DNA of 64,000 bases from a virus (IMGVR_UViG_2772190776_000003:1-64000); one strand, 5' to 3'. Positions 2,857 to 61,066 are shown, numbered from the stretch's first letter. The notes: generated by a model from the letters alone, not told the origin. Numbers and translations: made by a program.

Positions 2857-5800
2857 CAGAACCGCCCCCCTGCCATTTGTGCGCCACGCTCCAGCTGCTC
2901 AAACAGCGCATTGAGTGCATCGCTGCTGGCGCTGTCTGCCACATGGATGCCCAGCACATCGCCCCCAGGCAGCGCAATTTCGTGCCGGATGATTTGCTGC
3001 ACCTGCTGCGCGCCCCAGCCTTGCTGCTGCTCGGGCTGCGGCTGGCCAGTGGGCTGCTGGCGCATTTCTGCCAGCAGATCGCGGTTGCTGGGGCCTGTGT
3101 CTGCGCTGGCCAATTGCTCGCGCCGTGCCTGGTTCTGGCGCTCCAGCTCGTCACGCTCAGACTGGCGGCGCTGTTCATCCTCATCTTTGCGGATGCGCTC
3201 TTGCACCTTCTCCAGCTCGCGGTCATAGACCCACTTGCCCTGGCGCTGTGCTTTGCGCAGGCGCTCGGCTTCTTCTTCGGTGGCCCCCCGGGGCACCGCG
3301 GGGCTTTGCGATGTGCGCCCGGGTTTGTTGCCGGGTGCTGGTTTGGTGTCGCTGCCGGGCTGCTTGTCAGGTGCAGGCTTGTTCTCGGCGGCTTGCTGCT
3401 GATAGCGCAGGCGCTGCTGCTCGGCTTTGGCCCAGGCTTGCATTGAACGGTCTGCAGACTTTTCTGCCGCGTCTGCTGCTTTTTCAAACGCCAGGGCAAT
3501 TTCACGCGGGGTGGCGGTGCCGCTGTCGCGAATGGCCTCATAGGCTTTGCGGGCAGTCTCTGCCGTACGCAGCAGCGATTCATCTGACACCACACCCAGC
3601 TGGCGCATGGCTTCCTGCACGCTCTGGATGCCGGGGGTGGAGTCTTCCAGCGCCGTCTTGAGCTCACGCGCCTTGGCGGCAGCCTGGTCCAGCAGGCCAT
3701 CAGCCACCTCATCACCGAGTTTTGCACGCAGCTCTTCAATCTTCCCTTTGAGCGCCTCCACTGCCTGCTGGCTGTCTGCCGTGTTGATAGCTTTGCTCAA
3801 GCTGACCTGCAGGGCCCGGGCTGCGTCTACGCCCTGCGCTTGCAGGCGCTCCATGCTTGCTGCAATGGCGTCCACATCATTGATAGCGCTGCGGCTGGCC
3901 GCACCAATCTTGCCCTGCAGCACATCAAAATCCAGCCCCGTGCGCAGCACAGCCTGGTGCACCACGGCATCCATCACCTGCGCCAGGCGCTCAGCCTCAC
4001 GCGCGCCGCCTTGCAGCGCTGTCTGGGCATTCACGGCAAATACGCCCAGGTCGATCTTTTCCAGCGCACCCTGCCATGCCTGGGCAAATTGCTCGGCAGT
4101 GATCTGGCCATCTGCCTGCAGCTTGTCCAGCACGGCAGCGGCGTTCTGGATGCCTGCTTTGCCAGACAGGTCAAAGCCCTCACCAATCTTGGCCAGCGCC
4201 TCATCCACCCGCTTGCCCTCGCGCACCATGCCCTGGAAGGTGGCAATCAGGCCCTGTCCCTCTTTGCTCAGGCCAAAGCTGGCATTGCGTGACTCCTCTA
4301 GTGCCTGAGAAATTCTCTTATTTGCTTGGGCAACTTCTTCAGCCACTTTCGCCTGGTAGCTAGAAACCTCAGCAGCTCGTCGCTGCTCCTCCTCAAACTC
4401 TTTTAACTGCCTACCTGCTGCAGTAAAAGACTTCCCCCACTCGACAACGCTGCGGATGCCGCTTTCAATCTCGCTGCGAAATAAAACAAGATTAGCGACG
4501 AGACCAACCCAGCCCCCTGCAAAACCCACCACAGCGCGTCCCACAGAGCCAAGCCCTTTGCCAAGCATGCCAGCGGCACCAGCACCTCCCTTCATGGCAG
4601 CTGTAGCTGCCTGCTGTGCCTTGGTGGCCTTCCCCCCAAAGATGGCCGCATTTTTGGCATTGCGCGCCAGCTCTGCCTGAATGAATGCCGATGTTTTGGC
4701 CGCAGCCGCCTGCGCACCCATGGCTGCTGCGCTTGCGCCCACGGCCGCAGCATTGGCCTTTTGCACAGCCGTGTTGGCAGCGGTGGCCACGGTGTTGGCT
4801 TCCATGGCCTGCGTGGCAGCCAGCGTTTTGGTGGCCCAGGCGCCAAAGTCGCTGGCCAGCTGGGCAATCTTCAGGGCTGCCCACAGCTTGCCTGCGGTCT
4901 GCAGCGCGTTGATCAGGGTGTCAATGTTCTCGGCCAGGTAGTTGATGGCCTTGGCTGCGTTCTCCGTGCTCAGCAAGCCAGCATCTGCGCTGCCCACGTA
5001 CAGCATCCACTGGGTGCGCAGGTTTTCCAGCGCACGGCCCACGGTGGCAGGCAGCTTGCCAAACTCGTTGGCCACCACGTCAGCCTGACCCTGCAGGGCT
5101 TTGGTGACCACTTCTGTGGTCAGTGCCCCCTCACCCGCCAGCTTGCGCAGCTCACCCGTGGTCACACCCAGCCCATCTGCCATGGCCTTGGCCAGGCGTG
5201 GGGCCTGCTCCATGACACTGTTGAACTCTTCGCCACGCAGCACGCCAGACTGCAAGCCCTGGATGAGCTGGGTGATGGCTGCATCAGACGCCTGCGCGCT
5301 GGCACCTGACAGCTGCACGGCCTGGTTGATGGTCTCCGTGAGCGCCATGGCCTGCTGCGCAGCAGCTTGGGCACTCTGGCCTGCAGACTTGCCTGCATCG
5401 GTCAGCCGCGCAAACAGCGTGGCGGTGCTGCTGAGGCTGCTGTAAGTGGCTTGCGCCACGCGGGACACCTGCTCCCACGACTGGGCAAACAGCTGCCCCT
5501 CCCCCGTGGCCAGCTCTACGCGGGCGCGCAGGTTCTTGAATTCGTCCGCGACATCTGCAATCTCTTTGGCTTTGCCAATGGCCCAGCTGCCGCCCAGGGC
5601 CACCATGGCAATGGACTGGATGCGCTGGATCTGCGCGGCAATATCACCCAGCCCGTCTTTGAGTGTGCGCTGCGCGGCCAGCTGCTGGACAGCTGCACCA
5701 GAGGCCGCCGCAGCCGCCTGCTGGTAGGCTGGGGCCATGCGCTGCACTTCTTCACGCTTCTGAGCGATGGCGTTTTTCAGGTTGCGCTCATGAATGTTCA

Positions 5801-15744: not shown

Positions 15745-16000
15745 AACAGGCTCCTTGACGACAGGTTTTGAACCCATCCTCTCCCCGACCAAAAGGAGGT
15801 GATGGACCGTGCAGGGTTGGTCGACCGGGTCAAGGAACCGGCACACCCTTGCGGGTGTCCCCACACGGCCCACCGTAAAGCGAAACCATGTGCACGCAGA
15901 CATGCTTAGAAAGCAAAAAGCCGCAACCAACTTTTTTGTGGCGCGGCTGCTGCGCCTTGACTACCGAGCGACCAAGCCCAGATCACGCTTACGGGCGTGA
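15745..16000 (-). ncRNA. C4-type antisense RNA and target leader upstream of rha
   Basis: 5' hairpin TCACGCCCGTAAGCGTGA. Seeds TTGGTCG and GTCAAGG are complementary to downstream CGACCAA and CCTTGAC. Confidence 0.7.
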
Positions 16001-37066: not shown

Positions 37067-37314
37067 TCACGCCCGTAAAGCGTGATCAGGGTTGGAAGCC
37101 TGTAATACCGCTTGCGGCGACAAAGCCGCACCTCGCTACCGCAGTTGTGCGGCTTTGTCGTCTGTGGCCCCAGTTTTATGGTGGCTCGGAGGGGGAGCCG
37201 CAAGGCTCGCCGGTTCGCGCAAGCGGTCCCGGTCTTCCAACCCCTTCGAGTCACCGCCATTCGGTTGGAAGCGAAGGCGGTGGTTGTAGCAAATATGACC
37301 GCAAGGAGGCCGCC
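37067..37314 (+). ncRNA. C4-type antisense RNA and target leader upstream of the BRO antirepressor
   Basis: TCACGCCCGTAAAGCGTGA hairpin. GGGTTGGAAG and ACCGCTTGCG are complementary to CTTCCAACCC and CGCAAGCGGT. Confidence 0.75.
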
Positions 37315-52586: not shown

Positions 52587-53501
52587 TTACAGCCAGCCGG
52601 AGACAACCACTTCCAGACGATCCTTGAGGTCGTTGGTCTCGGTGGTCACTTCATTGCCCACGGTCACGGGCACCAGCTCGGCAGTCATCAGCTTGTTGGC
52701 TTGACGCTGCAGCGCGGTAGGCACCACCAAGGTGGTCGCTTTCAGTGCCAAGGGGCGGCCCATATCGCCTTTGAGGCCTTCAATCGCATTGATAGCGGCC
52801 CACAAGTTATCGCTGTTCAAAGGCTTGTTGCTGGCATAAGCCATTTGCCAGAAGCCAAAGCCCACATTGCGGCGTGCGTCTACGCCGTATTGGAACTCTG
52901 CTTTCGTGAAGACATTCGGATCTGTCTCTGCCGTCATCGCCACAAAGTGGGGGTTCTTGCGGTTCTGGAAGATCAGAGGCTTGATGGAGCGGCTGGTGTC
53001 CAGCACATACCACCAAGGGCCGTTACCGCCAGCATCCACGTTGCTGACGGCCTCTACCTTGCCCGATGCGTTCTTGACAGGGTGATTGGCTGCAAAGAAT
53101 GGCTTGCCGTCGTAGCACTTTTCGGCGGTGCCGCTAGACAGCAGGCCAAAAATCAGCTGATCAGGGTGCGCGGCAGCGGCGCGGCCAAGCTCACCCATCA
53201 GGGGCGTATAGACGCCATAGGTGTCATCTTCAATCGCGGTGCGGGGCACACCCACGGTCAGCTCGAAGGGCTTGTTCTTGATGCTGTAGCCGTGCGCTTC
53301 CAGGCCGTGGATGACGCGCTCGCCAATCCATTCACGCATGCCGGGCACCTGGCCCAGCCAGCCGTACTCTTCGGTACCCGTGGAACTGGGAACGACGGTG
53401 GCGAGCTTTTGGTAAATGCTCTGGGCTTCGTTGAGACCGCCTTGGAAGGCGGTTTTAAAACCCGTGAACAGGGTTTTCAGGCTAGATGGGGTCAGTTGCA
53501 T
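52587..53501 (-). CDS. Mu-like major head subunit gpT
   Basis: YGWLG..PGMREWIGER, KPLIFQ, GFGFWQMAY. Confidence 0.93.
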   Translation of the reverse strand: MQLTPSSLKTLFTGFKTAFQGGLNEAQSIYQKLATVVPSSTGTEEYGWLGQVPGMREWIGERVIHGLEAHGYSIKNKPFELTVGVPRTAIEDDTYGVYTPLMGELGRAAAAHPDQLIFGLLSSGTAEKCYDGKPFFAANHPVKNASGKVEAVSNVDAGGNGPWWYVLDTSRSIKPLIFQNRKNPHFVAMTAETDPNVFTKAEFQYGVDARRNVGFGFWQMAYASNKPLNSDNLWAAINAIEGLKGDMGRPLALKATTLVVPTALQRQANKLMTAELVPVTVGNEVTTETNDLKDRLEVVVSGWL

Positions 53502-53545
53502 GGTGCTGCCTTTTGACTGGTGGTAATGGGGTGCCAGGCCGGGGC

Positions 53546-53956
53546 TTAGGCGGTGGTGGGCACGGCAGCCTTGCCGATGTGCACCCAGACACCGACGTCG
53601 TCCACGTCGATGATTTCGCCTGCGATGCACGTGCCGGTCTTGGACACGGTGCTGTCGTCGGCCACAAAGGCGTTGTTGCCAATGTCTGCGCGGGTAATTG
53701 CTGCGGCCGCAGTGCTGTTGTCAAAGCGGAAGACACCGCGCTCACCCGGCACGGTTCCATCGGCCGGAACGGACTGGCGTGTGGATACGGCACGCACCGG
53801 CTTTTTGTCGGCTGCCACGGCGGGCTTGGCAGCGCCTGTGGCGTCCAGCACATACATCCCCCCGGCATAGAGCACGGTGGAAGCGGCGACGGGGTCACCC
53901 ACCAGCATGGCGTCGCCACGGCGGGGGGTGTTGCGGTTATCGGTTAGAGCGGCCAT
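53546..53956 (-). CDS. Capsid cement/decoration protein
   Basis: 136 aa between protease and capsid. Confidence 0.65.
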   Translation of the reverse strand: MAALTDNRNTPRRGDAMLVGDPVAASTVLYAGGMYVLDATGAAKPAVAADKKPVRAVSTRQSVPADGTVPGERGVFRFDNSTAAAAITRADIGNNAFVADDSTVSKTGTCIAGEIIDVDDVGVWVHIGKAAVPTTA

Positions 53957-53992: not shown

Positions 53993-55207
53993 TCAGGCCG
54001 CAGCCTTGCTCTTGGCGAAGTCCTCGGGATTGATGCCCATGGCGCTGCACACGGCCACTTCCGAGGCATCCAGACCATGCGCGCCCTTGGCGGTGTTTTC
54101 AGGCTGCTTGCCTTGGGTCTGGGTGCCGGTCAGCGCAGCGATGGGCTGTGCAGTGGCCAGATAGCTGGTGAGCGCAGTCATATTGGTTTGGCCCAGCTCA
54201 CGCGCCCAGGGCTCCATGGTGGGCTGCAAGCGCCCGTCTGCTAGCGCGGGCTGGATGAGGGCGTCGATCTCGGCCTCCTGCTGCTTGGCGGTCAGCGCAG
54301 CCAGTTGGGTTTGCAGAGCAGTGAGCGCAGCCACTGGCGCATATTCGGCAGGGTTGGGCTTACCGGTGGCCACAGCAGCCGTCAGCGCGGCGATCACCGT
54401 CTCGGCCTTGGCGTCAGCGGGCAGGCTCAATGCTGTGCACGCGGCGGTAGCCACTTGGGTGGCGGCCTCACCGGCGGCGGCTTTGGTCTGCAGGTCTTTG
54501 ATGGAGCCCACGGCGGTCAAGGCAGCAACAGCGCCTTTTTCGTCGGTGGTGTTGGGCAGGCCAAAGGCTGCCAGCACAGCGGCTAACAATGGATTCATGG
54601 TGGTTTGCTCCTGGGGGGCGGGAAGAAAGGCCGCCGTTGCAGCAGCCAGAAGGGAAAGCGGCTCCAGCCCGTGCAAGCCGGGGTGGTTGGTGACAGCGCC
54701 CATGTGAATGGCCAGGACGTGGCCCTCCGGCTGGGAGTACTCAAACACGGGGCTGAAATAACGGTATTGCTTGGCGGCAATCAGCGCTTTGGCTTCGTCT
54801 GTCCACTCGACTTCGCCAAAAAGCCCACGGCCTTCAACCCAGCGCAGCCGGTGCAGCCAGCCCGCGGCGGGCGCGGGCTGACCGTTCTTTTCTTTGTGCA
54901 GGGTCTGGTGCTCGTAGTCGATCACCGAGGGCTGACCGCGTGCGGCGTGGCGGGCGATCACTTGCGCGGCCAGCTCGGCGTCGATGTACCAGCTGGCCAC
55001 ATCCATGGCGCGGCCATCGGCGGGCAGAAACTTTCCCGCCGGGGTGCACTGCACCAAGTGGCGGCCGCCGCCGATGTCTTCGCCGATAGCGGTGCCTTCG
55101 AGCGCAAAGCTGCAGGCAGCCAGGGCCAGATTGCCGGCGCCTGCACTGCACAGTGCGATGGCGCTGGCTGCGGCGGCAAGGGGGTGGGTGCGGTGTTTTT
55201 GGGCCAT
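53993..55207 (-). CDS. Mu-like prohead protease I / scaffold
   Basis: IDYEHQT, APAAGW, YRYFSPVF, TNHP. Confidence 0.92.
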   Translation of the reverse strand: MAQKHRTHPLAAAASAIALCSAGAGNLALAACSFALEGTAIGEDIGGGRHLVQCTPAGKFLPADGRAMDVASWYIDAELAAQVIARHAARGQPSVIDYEHQTLHKEKNGQPAPAAGWLHRLRWVEGRGLFGEVEWTDEAKALIAAKQYRYFSPVFEYSQPEGHVLAIHMGAVTNHPGLHGLEPLSLLAAATAAFLPAPQEQTTMNPLLAAVLAAFGLPNTTDEKGAVAALTAVGSIKDLQTKAAAGEAATQVATAACTALSLPADAKAETVIAALTAAVATGKPNPAEYAPVAALTALQTQLAALTAKQQEAEIDALIQPALADGRLQPTMEPWARELGQTNMTALTSYLATAQPIAALTGTQTQGKQPENTAKGAHGLDASEVAVCSAMGINPEDFAKSKAAA

Positions 55208-55214
55208 AGCCGCC

Positions 55215-55256
55215 ATGGTCGGCGGCTGCGGCCTTGTGGTCTTTTAGCGGGCGCTA
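55215..55256 (-). promoter_or_regulatory. Late promoter PI-like
   Basis: TAGCGCCCGCTAAAAGACC with GACCAT 18 nt after AAAGAC. Same layout as the site upstream of the holin. Confidence 0.6.
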
Positions 55257-55264
55257 GTGATTGC

Positions 55265-55813
55265 CTAGCGGCCCAGCAGCCAGTCCCGTGTGATGGTTTG
55301 GATCTCGCGCTCGTCCTCGGTGCTGATGCCCAGGAATGGCCGGGCGGGCATGACGGCTTCGTGCGCAGGAATGGTAACGGCCATGCTGCGCTGGGCCTTT
55401 TTCTTTTTCACGAAAAGGCGCTCTGTGCTGCCCGCGCCAAAGTGCACGGTGCTTTGGCGGGCTGGCTGCTCAATGGTGCCACCATGCTGGTGGATGGCCG
55501 CATAGACACTGTTGCTGCCCCAGCGCACCGCATCATTGCCCACCGGCTGCCAGTGGATGCGGCGCAGGTAGCCGTCCAAAGTGAGCACCTTGTCTTTGTT
55601 TTTCTTTTTGCGCTTGAGGTAGCGCGGGGTGAGCGCCTGCCATGCGGTGCCATCGGGGCCGGACTGGCTTTTGAAGCGGGCCTCTGTGCTGCTTTGCCCG
55701 TATTCGCCCAGCTGGGCCAGCAGCTCGGCGGGGTTCTCCAGCCGCGCTTGAATTTGCCCCAGCACGTCGGGGCCAACCATGGATAAATCAACGCGGATGT
55801 GGGTGCCTGCCAT
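55265..55813 (-). CDS. Virion morphogenesis protein (Mu gpG)
   Basis: PDGTAW, YAAIHQHGG, PARPFLG. Confidence 0.9.
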   Translation of the reverse strand: MAGTHIRVDLSMVGPDVLGQIQARLENPAELLAQLGEYGQSSTEARFKSQSGPDGTAWQALTPRYLKRKKKNKDKVLTLDGYLRRIHWQPVGNDAVRWGSNSVYAAIHQHGGTIEQPARQSTVHFGAGSTERLFVKKKKAQRSMAVTIPAHEAVMPARPFLGISTEDEREIQTITRDWLLGR

Positions 55814-55842
55814 TTTTGGGCTCCTGTGCTTACAATGTGATC

Positions 55843-55929
55843 AACTCATCGGGGGAGAAGGCCGCGCCAGGCCCACCGACCCTACCCCCGGAGGAGCCCA
55901 GCAAGTGGCGCTTTGCTGGGCTCGCCGTT
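55843..55929 (+). ncRNA. Candidate kissing-loop small RNA convergent on the MuF-nuclease gene
   Basis: TACAAT at 55831, nested stems, complementary loops GCGCCA and TGGCGC. Confidence 0.5.
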
Positions 55930-57174
55930 TCAGCTGCGTGCATATACCTGCACGCCCACGCGCCACTCTTCGGCGCTGCCGCTCGCACCCTGAAACAGGG
56001 TGACACCGGCCCAGCCGTCATCCCCCAGCTCAAACACTGCCAGCGCTGGCAGCGCTTGGCCTTGCACCGCAAACTGTGCGATGTAGCGGCGGCGCACCAC
56101 TGCCTTTTGCAGGGTGTAGAGCCACTCCAGCCGCACCCAGATTTCGTCCGGGTGGAGCAGCGCTTGGGCCAGCAGCGGCAAAAAGGTTTCACGGCCACGC
56201 TTGGTGACCTTCCACTCGCCTTGCGCCGTCTGGAACAGCTCTTTACCCACGACCAGCCGCTCACCCACTGCATCGCGCACGATGGCGGGCTGCTCCAGCG
56301 TGGCCCCCAGCGGCTGCAGGAATGCCTGCACATAGGCTTCGGGGGCCAGCCCTTGGGGCAACAGCGCATCGCTGGTGACGGGGCGTGGCGGCGGCAGTGG
56401 TGCCAATGGGCGGGTATTGGGCAGCCCTTGGCCGCCCGCGCTGCCCGGCACGGGTGGGTCTGGCCGCTCAGGCGGTATGGCGCTGCGCAGGCGGCAGCTG
56501 CCGGGTGCGTACTCAAAGCCGGGGCCAACGCCTTCGGGCACCTGCACCGTGCGCGGGCCGTTGGGACTGTTTTTGCCAATGGTGTGCTCGACAAGGCGGA
56601 TCTCGGGCGCGGTATCTGGCCCGCTCTTGCCCAGGCGCTGCAGATCGCGTGGCCACAGGCCGCGCACCTTGCACTGGCAGCCCCAGTCGTTGGGCGGGAA
56701 GTGAATGCGCCACCACGGGTCTTCACGCAGCAGCACCAGGCCATCCCACGCGACGTGCTGCATGCGTGGGTGCTCGACCCAGTCGCTGTGCTCGTACTGC
56801 CAGTACGGCGCGGCCTGCAGCTGCTGCCAGCGGCCAGCGGCGTAGCTGGTGGACAGGTTGGTGTCATAGATGACGCGGCTGCGCCAGTTGCGCCCGCCGT
56901 TGTAGTCCCAGCCGTGCTTGGCGACGATGGCATCGAAGTCCTTGCGGAAGGTCTCCAGCGTAGTGCCCTCGGAGATGGCTTTTTCTACAGCCGCCCGAAA
57001 GTCCGTGACGATGTCGTTGCGGTTGGCCCCAGCCACGACGAACGCCCAGTCATGCTCGTGGGTGTAGATGTCTGTCCAACTGGTGGTGGGCAGGTTGAGC
57101 TTGCGCTGAAAAAAAGCCTGCTGCTCCTTGAACGGAAAACTGCCATACGCGGCGGCGGGTGGGCTAGTGGCCAT
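55930..57174 (-). CDS. MuF head morphogenesis protein with C-terminal PBECR2-like nuclease domain
   Basis: FPPNDWGCQC MuF motif, C-terminal LA..L..PDEIW...RRRYI...GVTLF. Confidence 0.85.
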   Translation of the reverse strand: MATSPPAAAYGSFPFKEQQAFFQRKLNLPTTSWTDIYTHEHDWAFVVAGANRNDIVTDFRAAVEKAISEGTTLETFRKDFDAIVAKHGWDYNGGRNWRSRVIYDTNLSTSYAAGRWQQLQAAPYWQYEHSDWVEHPRMQHVAWDGLVLLREDPWWRIHFPPNDWGCQCKVRGLWPRDLQRLGKSGPDTAPEIRLVEHTIGKNSPNGPRTVQVPEGVGPGFEYAPGSCRLRSAIPPERPDPPVPGSAGGQGLPNTRPLAPLPPPRPVTSDALLPQGLAPEAYVQAFLQPLGATLEQPAIVRDAVGERLVVGKELFQTAQGEWKVTKRGRETFLPLLAQALLHPDEIWVRLEWLYTLQKAVVRRRYIAQFAVQGQALPALAVFELGDDGWAGVTLFQGASGSAEEWRVGVQVYARS

Positions 57175-58780
57175 AGCCAGCCGCCTCCTGCAGCACGTCA
57201 TGGCGGCCTGCCAACTCGGCCGTAGCCAGCGCATCGGCCAAGGCACTGGCGTACTGATCCAGCGTCATATCGGGCAGCAGCTGCTCCAGCCCATCGCGGA
57301 TGTCTTGCAGGCTGGTGGCCCGCATCACCAGCTCGCGCAGTTGGGCCACCCAGCCGCCCGCTGCCGGGTCAGCCTGGCGGGCCAGCTGGGGCAGCATGGC
57401 CCCGGCCACGGTGCGCGGCTGAGATGGGGCTGTCTGTGCGGTCAGCGCGGCGGCGGCCGCAGGTGGAGTGCCGGGCACAGCAGGCGCGGCATGGGCAGCT
57501 ATGGTAGTTGGGGCTGGGGTCAGCACCTCTTCGCCTGCTTGCGGCAGCGGAATGCCCAGACGGCGGTTGGCCCAGGTTTTGGGCACTTGCACGCCAACAG
57601 CCACCAGCTTGGGCAGAGCGTTGGACATGGACTCCATGTCCTCGGTTTCGTCGGCCGTCAGCCGCATGCGTGGGCAGCGCTTGATACCACCCGGCGCCAG
57701 GCCATTGAGCGTGGCCATGGCGTAGACCAGGTCGCGGGTCAAGGTGGTGTTGAGCTGGCGCAAGTCGCCGTCGCGCAGGTCTTTGCGCACCTCGTTGTGC
57801 ACATTGCCCAAGGCGTTGGTGCTGCTTTTGCCATCGGCCCCGCTGGTGAGCGTGCCGCCCAGGATGACCTTGGACTGGTTGCGCTCACACCAGCTGATCA
57901 TCAGCTCAAAGGCTTTGGGGTCACCCGTGGCAGCATCCTTGAAGTCGATGAGCATGCCGTCGGGGATGATGCCCGCCGCGTTGTGGCCAATGCCCACCAG
58001 GGCACGCAGCAAGGTGGCTTTTTCCTTCTCAGTGGCATTGGCCGGGTATTTGCCCAGCCGCACAGGGATGCCATAAATCTCCAGAAACTCGGCCAGGTCG
58101 CCCACGGAGTAGTTTTTGAACAGGTACGTCCACACCAGCTGGCGAAACAGCGCCGTGCGCTCCAGGTAGCCGGATTTGGCCTTGTGGATGTGGGTGATCC
58201 AGTTGAACGGACGCAGCACCTCGCCCTGAATGCCGTCAGCGTCTGCGGTGTTGGAGCGCAGGCGCAGCTCCTGCCGGTAGCCACGGTGCAGCTGGAACCA
58301 GCTTTGCGGCCGGTGCGTGACGGTTTTGGGCAGCCACAGCTTGCCCTCACGGTGCCATTCCATTTCAAGGCATGCAAAGCCTTTTCCGATCGCGTCGGTG
58401 GCGTCAAAGATCACGTCTTCAAAGTCGGGGATAGCCTGCACCAGCTCGCCCAGTTGCTCGGCGTTGCGCTTTTCCAAGGCGCTGGCGCCCTCGGGCGGCA
58501 CGACCTCCCAGTCCACGATGCAGGCGCGGCGGCGCTTGCCCATCTCGCTGGCAATGTGGCCGTCCTTCTCTTCCATGTCTTCAAACAGGTCGAACTGGGC
58601 CGTGAGGTCACCTTGCTCGGCCGCGTCCAGGATGGTGGCCAGTTTGCTGGGGGTGAGACCGCGTGTGGGGTGGGACTGCAGCTCACGCTGCAGGTGGCCC
58701 AGCTGGGAGGTTTGCGGGGTGCGGATGTCATCCATCTCAATCGGCTGGCCATCGGCCCCCAAAATCATGCTTTTTGCCAT
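57164..58780 (-). CDS. DUF935 portal protein (Mu gp29)
   Basis: FLEIYGIPVRLGKY, ILGGTLTS, GNVHNEVR. Confidence 0.92.
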   Translation of the reverse strand: MAKSMILGADGQPIEMDDIRTPQTSQLGHLQRELQSHPTRGLTPSKLATILDAAEQGDLTAQFDLFEDMEEKDGHIASEMGKRRRACIVDWEVVPPEGASALEKRNAEQLGELVQAIPDFEDVIFDATDAIGKGFACLEMEWHREGKLWLPKTVTHRPQSWFQLHRGYRQELRLRSNTADADGIQGEVLRPFNWITHIHKAKSGYLERTALFRQLVWTYLFKNYSVGDLAEFLEIYGIPVRLGKYPANATEKEKATLLRALVGIGHNAAGIIPDGMLIDFKDAATGDPKAFELMISWCERNQSKVILGGTLTSGADGKSSTNALGNVHNEVRKDLRDGDLRQLNTTLTRDLVYAMATLNGLAPGGIKRCPRMRLTADETEDMESMSNALPKLVAVGVQVPKTWANRRLGIPLPQAGEEVLTPAPTTIAAHAAPAVPGTPPAAAAALTAQTAPSQPRTVAGAMLPQLARQADPAAGGWVAQLRELVMRATSLQDIRDGLEQLLPDMTLDQYASALADALATAELAGRHDVLQEAAGYGH

Positions 58781-58949
58781 GTGGGCACCTCGTGAAGGGG
58801 ATTGCGCCAGCGCATTGCATGGCTGCAAGGCGCGGCAAGGCGTTTACGGGCGTTTACAAGGCCGCAAACACAACAAACCGTGGGCGTTGCATACCCTCGG
58901 CCTAAAAATCGCTTAAATCGCCGGATTTCGGCAGCTGGGTGTTGCGGCA

Positions 58950-60494
58950 TCACCAGCCCTCGGCCTCGGGCATGGCCCAGTCGTTGTCATCCACGGCGCT
59001 GGGGTCGGCCCGGTGGTCAAAGCCACGGGCGTGGGTGGGCACGGGGATATAGTCGATGGGAATAATCTTGAGCTTGGCCGCCGCATGGGCGTACACGCAG
59101 GCCATGGCGCGGTCGCCGTGGCTGTCGCCTTCGGTCTTGCCCTCCGGGATGCGCGCCACCCCGCGCACCAGCCTGAAGGCGCGGTGGTCTTGCAGCAGGC
59201 CATCGTGCTTGGGCAGCGTGATTGTGCCGTCTTCAAACGCGGCCTTGTAACCGGGCATGTTGTCGCGGTACCAGCCCTCGGTGGGCATGAGCTTGAGCAC
59301 CATGGCCCCATAGCGGTCTTCGGCGGATTCACCGATGTAGGAACCATTGCCCCGGCTGTCAATGACGATGCCCGAGCAACGGGGCAACGCATCACAAATG
59401 GCGAACAGCACCTGCTCTTGCTGCTTGTAGGGGACGTTTTTCAGCTCGACCAGGAACGGCACACGCTCATGCAGGTTGGCTGCCACCTCCACCGGTGCCA
59501 GCACAGACAGGTCGCCCGTGCGCGCAAAGTCCATGCCCAGCGCGTGGCGCAGCTCGGGGGTGAGTTTCTTGAGCAGGGGCCGCAGCGTTTCGTCGATCCA
59601 GTCCTGCATGAGTGCTTTGCGCACTTCCGGGCTGGACTGGTTGAATGCTTTGGTGCCCGTAAAGCGGATGACGGGTGCCTCCACCATGCGGCTTTCCACC
59701 TGCACGCGGGTGAGCCAGGCACCACCGCCCTGGGCGGGAATGCAAAACAGCTCTTCGCCCTCGTTGGGGCGGTAGCGGTTGATGATTTCTTGCCGCCACT
59801 GGGCCTCGCCCTCGCGGCTCCAGGGCCGCTTGCTGACCGCACAGATCTTGCGGTATAGGCCATCACGCAGGGCGTCGTCAAAGTCCACGCGGTGCAGGCT
59901 GTAGGGGTAGCGGCCTGCGCGCACATCGGTAATCAGTTCGTTGAACGGGTTGTCCTCGCCGTTGTGGGTGCTGATGATGCGGATTTGCCCGCCCCACATG
60001 GTCATGGCCATGGCGGCCTTGAGCAGCTCTTTGATGTCGTCCACAAAGGCGGCTTCGTCAATCACCAGCCGTTCACCGGGGCGCCCCTTGGAGCGCAGGT
60101 TGCGTGGGTTGCTGGTGAAGGCCTGAATCTTGTGGCCGCTGTCGAAGTGGATGCTGTAGCTGAGGATTTGCTTGTCTTCCTCTTCCAGCACCGACTCTTG
60201 AATCTGGCTGGCGGCCGCATTGAAGGCCTTGGCCCAGCCGGCACAGTCCTGGATGAAGCCTTGGGTCATCTCCTTGTTGTAGGAGATGTAGTAGACGTTG
60301 GCCCCCTCGGCGCTGGCGGCATACAGCACGTCGTCGGCCGCCTCGGCATAGCTTAGACCGATGCGGCGTGACTTTTCCATGATCTTGACGGGTGCCATGT
60401 CTTCCACCCACTTGACCTGGTAGGCCATGAAGATGGCCTGGCTCAGCTCCGTAGGCTCTGGCGCTTGCAGCTCGGGGGTGACCTGCTCCATCAC
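58950..60494 (-). CDS. Terminase large subunit (Mu gp28)
   Basis: KSRRIGLS, VIDEAAF, ISTHNG, GMDFAR, HGD. Confidence 0.93.
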   Translation of the reverse strand: MMEQVTPELQAPEPTELSQAIFMAYQVKWVEDMAPVKIMEKSRRIGLSYAEAADDVLYAASAEGANVYYISYNKEMTQGFIQDCAGWAKAFNAAASQIQESVLEEEDKQILSYSIHFDSGHKIQAFTSNPRNLRSKGRPGERLVIDEAAFVDDIKELLKAAMAMTMWGGQIRIISTHNGEDNPFNELITDVRAGRYPYSLHRVDFDDALRDGLYRKICAVSKRPWSREGEAQWRQEIINRYRPNEGEELFCIPAQGGGAWLTRVQVESRMVEAPVIRFTGTKAFNQSSPEVRKALMQDWIDETLRPLLKKLTPELRHALGMDFARTGDLSVLAPVEVAANLHERVPFLVELKNVPYKQQEQVLFAICDALPRCSGIVIDSRGNGSYIGESAEDRYGAMVLKLMPTEGWYRDNMPGYKAAFEDGTITLPKHDGLLQDHRAFRLVRGVARIPEGKTEGDSHGDRAMACVYAHAAAKLKIIPIDYIPVPTHARGFDHRADPSAVDDNDWAMPEAEGW

Positions 60495-61066
60495 ATGGTC
60501 CCCATGATGGCGGCGCGCAACGCTGCCACCCCGTTGGCGGACAAGCCAGCGGCCTTGGCCGTGGTTTCTGCGGTGGCGGCGGCGTCTTCCAGCGCTTTCT
60601 TGCGTGCCTCGGCCTCTACCTTGGCCTGGAATTGCTTCAAGTTGACGCTGGAGCGGGTGAGCGTGGCAATGTTCTTGGCCGCTTTGCTGAGCAAGGTGAC
60701 GCGCTGGCCGGGGTCGGCCTCGGGGTCGTCGGCTTCTTGCAGCAGCAAGATGGCGTCAAACAGCTCGGTCTGCACCATGGCAACCAGGGCTTCAGAGCGG
60801 GCGTCTTCGTCGTCACCAGCATGCTGGCGAATCAGGCGTGCGGCTTCGGTGCTGGCCCGGATGGCGTTCAAGCGCCGATCCAGCTTGGCGCCGTAGCGGT
60901 GCAAGGCCGAGCGGCTGGGCAGTTCGCCCTTGCTGGCCTCGGTGGGAAAGCGCTCTTGCAGGTCTGCAATCAACGCATCCAGCGTCTGACTGCCTGTGGC
61001 CAGCATGGCCTGAATGTAGGCCTTGACGTCAGGACTCATGCGGTCGATGGAGCTTTTGCGGCCCAT
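60491..61066 (-). CDS. DUF3486 terminase small subunit (Mu gp27)
   Basis: MGRKSSIDRM, SRSALHRY. Confidence 0.88.
   Translation of the reverse strand: MGRKSSIDRMSPDVKAYIQAMLATGSQTLDALIADLQERFPTEASKGELPSRSALHRYGAKLDRRLNAIRASTEAARLIRQHAGDDEDARSEALVAMVQTELFDAILLLQEADDPEADPGQRVTLLSKAAKNIATLTRSSVNLKQFQAKVEAEARKKALEDAAATAETTAKAAGLSANGVAALRAAIMGTM

Follow-up and report, generated by a model that had tools for sequence, protein, structure and literature searches.

The window analysed here is a stretch of 64,000 nucleotides from a virus (IMGVR_UViG_2772190776_000003:1-64000) and belongs to an IMG/VR provirus record of 75 kb. In this window, the genes F and G of a Mu-like phage head module are separated by a gap of 116 nt (55814-55929), and this gap holds an element which is very probably the gene of a structured small RNA, located on the + strand of the window and opposite to the late head operon. 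Every gene around the gap lies on the minus strand. The assignments by Pfam are:

60491-61066, minus strand, gp27-like (Phage_Mu_Gp27)
58950-60494, minus strand, large terminase (Terminase_6N)
57164-58828, minus strand, portal (Portal_Mu)
55930-57246, minus strand, F, Mu F-type minor head protein, MuF with C-terminal PBECR2 (PBECR2 5.1e-28, Phage_Mu_F 1.3e-11)
55265-55813, minus strand, gpG, virion morphogenesis protein (Phage_tail_S 1.4e-30)
53993-55216, minus strand, gpI protease (Mu-like_Pro)
52587-53630, minus strand, gpT capsid (Mu-like_gpT)

For F the ATG at 57174, which is preceded by GGAGG, is the likelier start, and the product is a head protein of 414-438 aa. No open reading frame (ORF) of at least 40 aa is found within the gap, and the frames listed there all overlap the adjoining genes. 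The original prediction for this DNA had pointed to a 116-bp gap without an immunity gene, and the ORF listing agrees, as it has none inside and the next gene is gpG.

The features of the element, all on the + strand, are:

55807-55812, + strand, weak -35-like hexamer CTGCCA, 18 nt 5' of the -10 box, overlapping the first gpG codons on the other strand
55831-55836, + strand, -10 box TACAAT of the proposed small RNA gene; T1, A2 and T6 are kept in 50/50 aligned elements
55843-55930, + strand, proposed small RNA of ~85-90 nt, with ends placed from the promoter box and the terminator positions
55850-57 with 55882-90, + strand, outer stem of the 5' domain, CGGGGG(AG)/(CT.)CCCCCG, with a bulged A at 55884, enclosing the inner hairpin and a single-stranded stretch
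55860-55873, + strand, inner hairpin GGCC-GCGCCA-GGCC; its loop (55864-55869) is kissing partner 1
55874-55881, + strand, conserved C-rich unpaired stretch CACCGACC, which is CCUCCAAUCC in most relatives
55894-55904 with 55913-55923, + strand, 11-12 bp stem GAGCCCAGCAA/TTGCTGGGCTC of the 3' hairpin (whole hairpin 55894-55923), the proposed terminator hairpin
55906-55911, + strand, loop TGGCGC of the 3' hairpin, kissing partner 2
55924-55933, + strand, T-containing tail GCCGTTTCAG, overlapping the F stop codon (TCA, 55930-32); weak in the window, a clear T run in many relatives

The RNA would start ~7 nt past the -10 box and end in the T-rich tail. A coordinate check found the TACAAT, the stems and the loops of the original prediction all in place, and the two loops, GCGCCA and TGGCGC, indeed pair over 6 nt. 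Within the C-rich stretch C46, C47, A49 and C51 are almost invariant across relatives and the motif is retained in elements spanning 35-68% G+C; the stretch is a candidate seed or protein-binding site. When folded as a single sequence, the gene strand gave a z-score of -1.23 and the + strand of -0.85, with 22/200 and 41/200 shuffles folding as well. The window sequence alone is therefore within chance for G+C-rich DNA, and the decisive evidence has to come from comparison.

An F-based search provided 40 viral and 20 genome loci. In most of these F-anchored loci F and gpG are separated by a spacer of ~90-125 nt, while gpG identity drops to 33-47%. Read by eye, the spacers have the same two-hairpin layout with altered stems and with loops that alter in concert. 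A structure-naive alignment of 19 elements (A2), which was made with MAFFT only and used the structure of the window fold, had 93.3% of its cells paired, compared to 79.3% in shuffled alignments and 31-45% when the partners were slid, and the loop-loop helix reached 97.4%. A covariance model (CM), R1, was built without the loop-loop helix. R1 detected the element in the window (114.4 bits, E 3.8e-46) and in 31 of the 60 F-anchored loci. In an independent sample of 80 loci anchored on gpG the same model found the element 20 times, each directly upstream of gpG and on the opposite strand.

Pairing statistics were calculated on a cleaned alignment of 50 elements (A6). Here 95.2% of the cells are paired, versus 73.9% in shuffled alignments (0/500 shuffles reach this value) and 35-48% with the partners slid, and both-sided changes occur at 25 of the 30 pairs. 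The outer stem (helix 1) has 94.6% of cells paired, with both sides changing at 7/8 pairs, the inner hairpin (helix 2) 97.5%, and the 3' hairpin (helix 4) 93.3%, with double changes at 11/12 pairs. The loop-loop helix (helix 3), although absent from the model, is paired in 98.0% of the cells with double changes at 4/6 pairs; the original prediction had proposed a test for such loop-loop covariation. Its pair 1 is CG in 26, GC in 22 and AU in 2 elements and its pair 2 CG in 32, UA in 16 and UG in 2, and pairs 5 and 6 have double changes as well. Seven variants of the loop pair occur: GCGCCA/TGGCGC, ACGCCA/TGGCGT, CCGCCA/TGGCGG, CTGCCA/TGGCAG, GTGCCA/CGGCAC, CCGCCG/CGGCGG and CTGCAC/GTGCAG. The loops of the inner and the 3' hairpin keep 5-6 complementary bases via compensatory changes. 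Judged by this comparison, the element is a structured RNA with loops predicted to pair with each other, beyond chance across relatives. It would represent a new RNA family with good comparative support, and a loop-loop contact inside one small RNA that is kept by covariation would be unusual and easily testable.

The element is not a dispersed repeat, as there are 0-2 copies per genome. GenBank phages contained no BLAST match to the element or to two relatives, none of the 4227 families of Rfam 15 matched in the gap even when E values as high as 10 were admitted, and an Rfam scan of 20 diverse loci gave 0 matches. Five further R1 matches with E 0.11-0.58 were taken as noise, and the matches in L073, L075, L076 and L077 were discarded by eye as false, being 3' parts of tRNAs or plain terminators. 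The unpaired motif resembles the 3' half of a T arm, which explains the weak false matches L073 and L076 on tRNA 3' parts and terminators. A tRNA-like identity of the element itself was dropped, as ARAGORN recognised no cloverleaf and called 0 tRNA genes in 8 loci, including the window locus L001.

On the + strand, G.U combinations outnumber A.C by 114 to 10 cells in A6 and by 35 to 9 in A2, and in the 3' hairpin alone by 87 to 0. In addition, a TAnnnT hexamer is located 9-15 nt 5' of the 5' domain in 50/50 elements; the distance from this -10 box to the gpG ribosome site differs among loci. At least four T are found within 8 nt past the 3' hairpin in 40 of the 50 elements; viewed from the gene strand, this T tail is an A run around the F stop codon. 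Consensus scans in the + strand sense gave TTGACT-17-TATATT in L147, CTGACA-18-TATAAT together with a terminator call on the same strand in L083, and CTGCCA-18-TACAAT (9/12) in the window. Since the pairing asymmetry, the -10 box and the T-rich tail all point there, the RNA is most likely read from the + strand of the window, opposite to the genes. To judge from the alignment, the covarying hairpin with its T tail has the make-up of the intrinsic terminator expected of an independent small RNA gene.

The strand signals also bear on a cis-acting structure of the late mRNA, which would be formed on the gene strand and serve processing, stability or F-G translation coupling. The element does lie inside the operon, the gene strand folds equally or better in the clade of the window, and the ten cells in the minority above are G.U only on the gene strand. 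There, the unpaired motif reads GGAUUGGAGG and resembles a ribosome binding site. However, no start codon follows this GGAGG-like motif, the G.U preference and the conserved -10 box and T tail belong to the other strand, and copies of the element occur outside operons (see below). We therefore see only a slim chance for this explanation. A site acting at the DNA level, either a central strong gyrase site like that of Mu or a dyad operator co-evolving with a protein, appears extremely improbable. In Mu a single central non-coding gap of notable size exists, that between G and I, and it contains the gyrase cut site (PMC10052514, PMC3820752), and in the present clade, with a G-I spacer of 48 nt in the window, the central gap is the one between F and G. 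The element has only its place in common with the Mu site, namely the central gap without coding sequence in the genome of a transposable phage. The Mu site is a DNA site without known RNA structure. In contrast, four helices of the element covary in the manner of RNA, with a tolerance for G.U and a strand asymmetry which DNA symmetry does not predict, and copies exist outside Mu genomes.

The element resembles a regulatory RNA more than an antidote to the nuclease encoded next to it. As a whole, the reading that we favour, and hold with middling confidence, is that of a base-pairing regulatory RNA whose partner is the F-G junction of the late transcript. The prophage RNA would act by base pairing and would be fully complementary to this junction, and therefore could trigger cleavage of the transcript or hinder gpG translation. 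The loops, together with the C-rich and G-rich internal loops, would be the first contact points, and the targets might be leaky transcripts of the own prophage or transcripts of a superinfecting relative. The promoter region of the proposed RNA gene overlaps the start codon and the ribosome site of gpG, so that the RNA could be switched off by strong late transcription. By analogy with STnc6030 (PMC7067206), such an RNA could exclude related phages or keep leaky late transcripts silent, and the loop variants could mark specificity classes of RNA-based exclusion among related phages. The simplest reading of the loop match would be that the two loops kiss within one molecule and thereby lock it in a compact fold. 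Possible roles of the matching are a locked scaffold, dimer formation or protein recognition.

Several points weigh against this interpretation. Intramolecular kissing masks the loops which usually make the first contact of an antisense RNA, so that the reason for the loops matching is left unaccounted for. The scan of the window gives no terminator and its own tail has three T only, and in L008 the consensus scan shows nothing at the element. The -35 hexamer is weakly conserved over the 50 loci (mean best 3.3/6 versus 2.5-2.8 at control offsets). Neither strand is preferred by fold energy, the mean difference being -0.55 kcal/mol with 30 versus 19 elements (p 0.32), and the window itself has the more stable fold on the gene strand (-44.1 versus -39.6). 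The ten cells that are A.C on the + strand lie mainly in the 5' domain. A search of sequencing runs gave 6 holders, each with at most 0.15 of the words, and these are strandless contigs only, of uncertain RNA or DNA origin. Finally, alignments made by the CM are biased towards the nested helices, from which the kissing helix is exempt, and the aligned rows are related, so the cells are not independent events.

At least seven copies are orphans, i.e., they have neither MuF nor gpG in loci of ~3 kb (L069, L072, L160-L163 and L164). L069 is a second copy in a genome with one F gene, and in the genome of L072 no MuF gene was found with the query used. L160-L163 come from the search of a genus with matches in 5 of 19 genomes, all of them orphans, and L164 from an order-level search, which also gave the doubtful match L165. 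In the orphans the -10 box, the matching loops and the T tail are retained, as are the stems, where U.G pairs occur on the same strand, and therefore the RNA can exist, and perhaps act, away from the operon. Their neighbours encode a LysR regulator, a NYN protein, a PIN protein, an MmeI domain, a Mur ligase and an ABC-F ATPase. Prophages with the element at their centre are found in Comamonas, Acidovorax, Ottowia, Arenimonas, Stenotrophomonas and low-G+C hosts. The element is rare in random genome samples: matches at threshold were obtained in 8 of 151 genomes of a family sample (3 of them true), 3 of 151 of an order sample and 1 of 150 of a second-family sample. Orphans in host chromosomes suggest domestication or another carrier element. 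L072, L160 and L161 share a segment of ~130 nt with 81-89% identity, ~1.2 kb from the element and in the same relative orientation; the sequence between segment and element differs, and the segment may be the edge of a carrier or a hot spot.

The orphans are an argument for a mainly trans-acting small RNA, in which the kissing scaffold displays the anti-Shine-Dalgarno-like CCUCCAAUCC as a seed against host or phage mRNAs and the antisense position at F-G is incidental. Copies that keep all signals outside any Mu operon, in 5/19 genomes of one genus, would be expected in this case, and a purely cis-antisense RNA would not need an unpaired motif that is conserved over such a range of G+C content. 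However, matches to the complement of the motif in the window are near chance (37 versus 23.9 expected, 2/100 shuffles reach this number). The near-matches in four orphan genomes fall within unrelated coding sequences, and no conserved target was found in the searches, which used short exact patterns only. Such a function of the RNA is, on balance, unlikely.

The gene next to the element in the window encodes a predicted nuclease, and the original prediction had assumed that a protein immunity gene should follow a MuF toxin gene. Small downstream ORFs are indeed usual in the survey of Jamet et al. (2017; PMC5576092), where 89.4% of 191 MuF toxin genes have them, whereas C-terminal MuF extensions of proteobacteria are left unproven as toxins in the cited part of that work. 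Genes of the Mu F type normally lack such an ORF. MuF with a C-terminal PBECR domain is the architecture of Mu F itself, where the domain is inactive, and of its orthologues (Iyer et al., 2017; PMC5512222), and the domain in the window is the one of these orthologues. In Mu, F overlaps G, and in Pseudomonas phage JBD25, whose F is 56% identical to the window protein, the spacer to G is 1 nt. For Mu F-type genes the absence of an immunity gene behind them is normal, and an annotation that seems tempting here is thereby corrected.

In the gpG-anchored sample, R1 elements were found at 18 of 47 loci with PBECR2-type F, at 0 of 22 with another F and at 2 of 11 without F match. The difference between the first two groups (Fisher p 0.0003) is confounded by ancestry. 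Among the 29 PBECR2-type loci without element, 19 have a spacer of <=17 nt and 10 a spacer of 86-106 nt with structures of other types (B or D, see below) or unclear ones. The association of PBECR2 and element is real in this sample, but it is not obligatory. The absence after F genes of other than PBECR2 type stood in this count, whereas look-alikes of the element (type C, in L029 and L091) do follow F genes without PBECR2 match. In L087 (1-1240) and L088 the Portal_Mu ORF ends in an F-like C-terminal tail and most of F is missing, and an intact element lies between the portal gene and gpG. In an alignment of 7 PBECR2 sequences the active-site residues could not be placed.

These data can be read in favour of the RNA being an inhibitor, decoy or substrate of an RNase, either the PBECR2 domain of F or a PIN/NYN-type enzyme, and acting as an RNA immunity factor. 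RNA binding or cleavage is predicted for PBECR domains by Iyer et al. (2017; PMC5512222), the element follows PBECR2-type F genes in preference to others, and 2 of the 7 orphans adjoin a PIN or NYN gene. None of the three outcomes that the original prediction had named as speaking against itself (loss of loop complementarity, occurrence after nuclease-less MuF, no detectable RNA) was found outright. Nevertheless, this explanation is decidedly improbable. Nineteen of the 47 PBECR2-type F genes do without the spacer, like Mu and JBD25, the element is kept where F is largely deleted and in a genome in which no MuF was found, the look-alikes follow F genes without PBECR2 match, and the remaining orphans neighbour the LysR, MmeI domain, Mur ligase and ABC-F genes. 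A ToxI-like antitoxin would lie upstream on the same strand in one operon with its toxin, but the element lies downstream of F with opposite strand signals. Tandem repeats as in type III systems are lacking as well: Tandem Repeats Finder, applied to 55600-56100, found only an array of 9 nt x 2.2 copies at 56037-56056, inside F. The element also does not resemble type I toxin-antitoxin systems with a small hydrophobic toxin peptide, as the neighbour is a head protein, nor a MuF toxin followed by an immunity ORF. From the original idea of an RNase paired with a structured RNA antitoxin, the conserved structured RNA with pairing loops has thus stood, while the antitoxin role is mostly unsupported. 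There is a faint chance that the RNA is a kissing-loop decoy which absorbs BECR- or PIN-type RNases, e.g., virion PBECR2, and shields the prophage or an orphan host from superinfecting relatives. In that case the covarying loops would set the specificity class.

Several known RNAs share single traits with the element. ToxI, a type III antitoxin, is a structured RNA whose gene lies close to that of an endoribonuclease, in surroundings related to phages. The element, too, is a structured RNA near a nuclease gene of a phage, but differs from ToxI in its lack of tandem repeats, its downstream position on the opposite strand and its non-obligatory nuclease link. The c4 RNA of P1/P7 (RF01695) is a small phage RNA whose loop sequences carry specificity. 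The loops of c4 pair with sites in the target mRNA and not with each other, and RF01695 gives no match at the F-G gap. In CopA/CopT and RNA I/RNA II, stable hairpins have loops of 6-7 nt, loop changes define specificity groups, and kissing takes place between two molecules. In contrast, the covariation of the element requires the match of two loops on the same strand.

A precedent for the favoured base-pairing regulatory RNA is STnc6030 of the Salmonella prophage BTP1, an antisense RNA within late genes that excludes superinfecting phage (PMC7067206). Both are prophage-encoded, lie inside late structural genes and are proposed to pair with the late transcript; the region to which STnc6030 is antisense comprises the 3' end of a DNA-injection gene and the beginning of the gene that follows (PMC7067206). 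However, STnc6030 is 500-786 nt long and experimentally supported, and no conserved fold is described for it in the cited passages (PMC7067206), whereas the present element has ~85-90 nt and a covarying kissing fold, is known from sequence alone and also occurs as orphans. A full-text literature search returned no small RNA described for transposable (Mu-like) phages, and in a 2025 review of phage-derived small RNAs the terms 'Mu-like', 'phage Mu' and 'kissing' are all absent (PMC12197685).

Elsewhere in the window, RF01695 (C4) matches at 37174-37261 (+) with 66.6 bits and at 15795-15880 (-) with 65.1 bits (gathering score 45). Other regulatory RNAs of phage type, or more than one element, may be present in the record. 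On the gene strand, a three-codon frame ATG AGT TGA is located at 55841-55849 (-), directly past the 5' domain, and its counterpart CATC on the + strand is retained in most elements of the window's type (type A). In L014, L015 and L045 a block of ~1.9 kb lies between element and gpG, which brings their distance to ~1.9-2.0 kb. There, the element stays at the F end and another gene begins beside a TAGAAT box. Wastewater contigs with at least 90% likeness match only the core 55842-55903 and have flanks unlike the window, yet with a TAAAAT box; such partial matches are at best a hint that the core is conserved in relatives.

The same gap holds further structures, which were read by eye because small hairpins are missed, or the loops closed, in minimum free energy (MFE) folds. 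A 5-nt loop match alone is weak evidence in such a reading. The loop pairs of these types are:

Type B, L021-type and L081, CCGGCA/TGCCGG
Type B, L174, CCGGCU/AGCCGG
Type B, L107, CUGGC/GCCAG
Type B, L090 and L023, 5-bp versions with one end mismatch
Type C, L029 and L091, CGCCA/UGGCG
Type D, L130 and L138, GGUGAU/AUCACC
Type D, L216, GGUGAUC/GAUCACC
Type D, L212, GGCGAU/AUCGCC
Type D, L140, CGUGG/CCACG
Type E, L036 and L038, ACGCAC/GUGCGU (p 0.005 each versus shuffles)

When the hairpin loops of MFE folds were tested against 200 shuffles in 20 gaps without model match, p 0.005 was reached by L036 and L038 only, the others ranging from 0.045 to 0.94. The model R2 fails to recover types B-E, with only L107/L182 scoring (E 0.006-0.01). 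The presence of at least four further types in the same gap is suggestive of a design shared with type A. In the low-G+C loci L247 and L250 the structure in the F-G gap is of another kind: it has an outer stem of 7 bp and, in addition, the hairpin CCTG-TTCGAAT-CAGG, which resembles the T arm of a tRNA; ARAGORN calls no tRNA there. In L060, whose F gene has another C-terminus, a small hairpin unlike the present one is located at ~3590-3700, on the opposite strand to the genes. It is preceded by TATAAAAT, a T run overlaps the F stop codon, and a further small RNA gene may thus occupy this slot.

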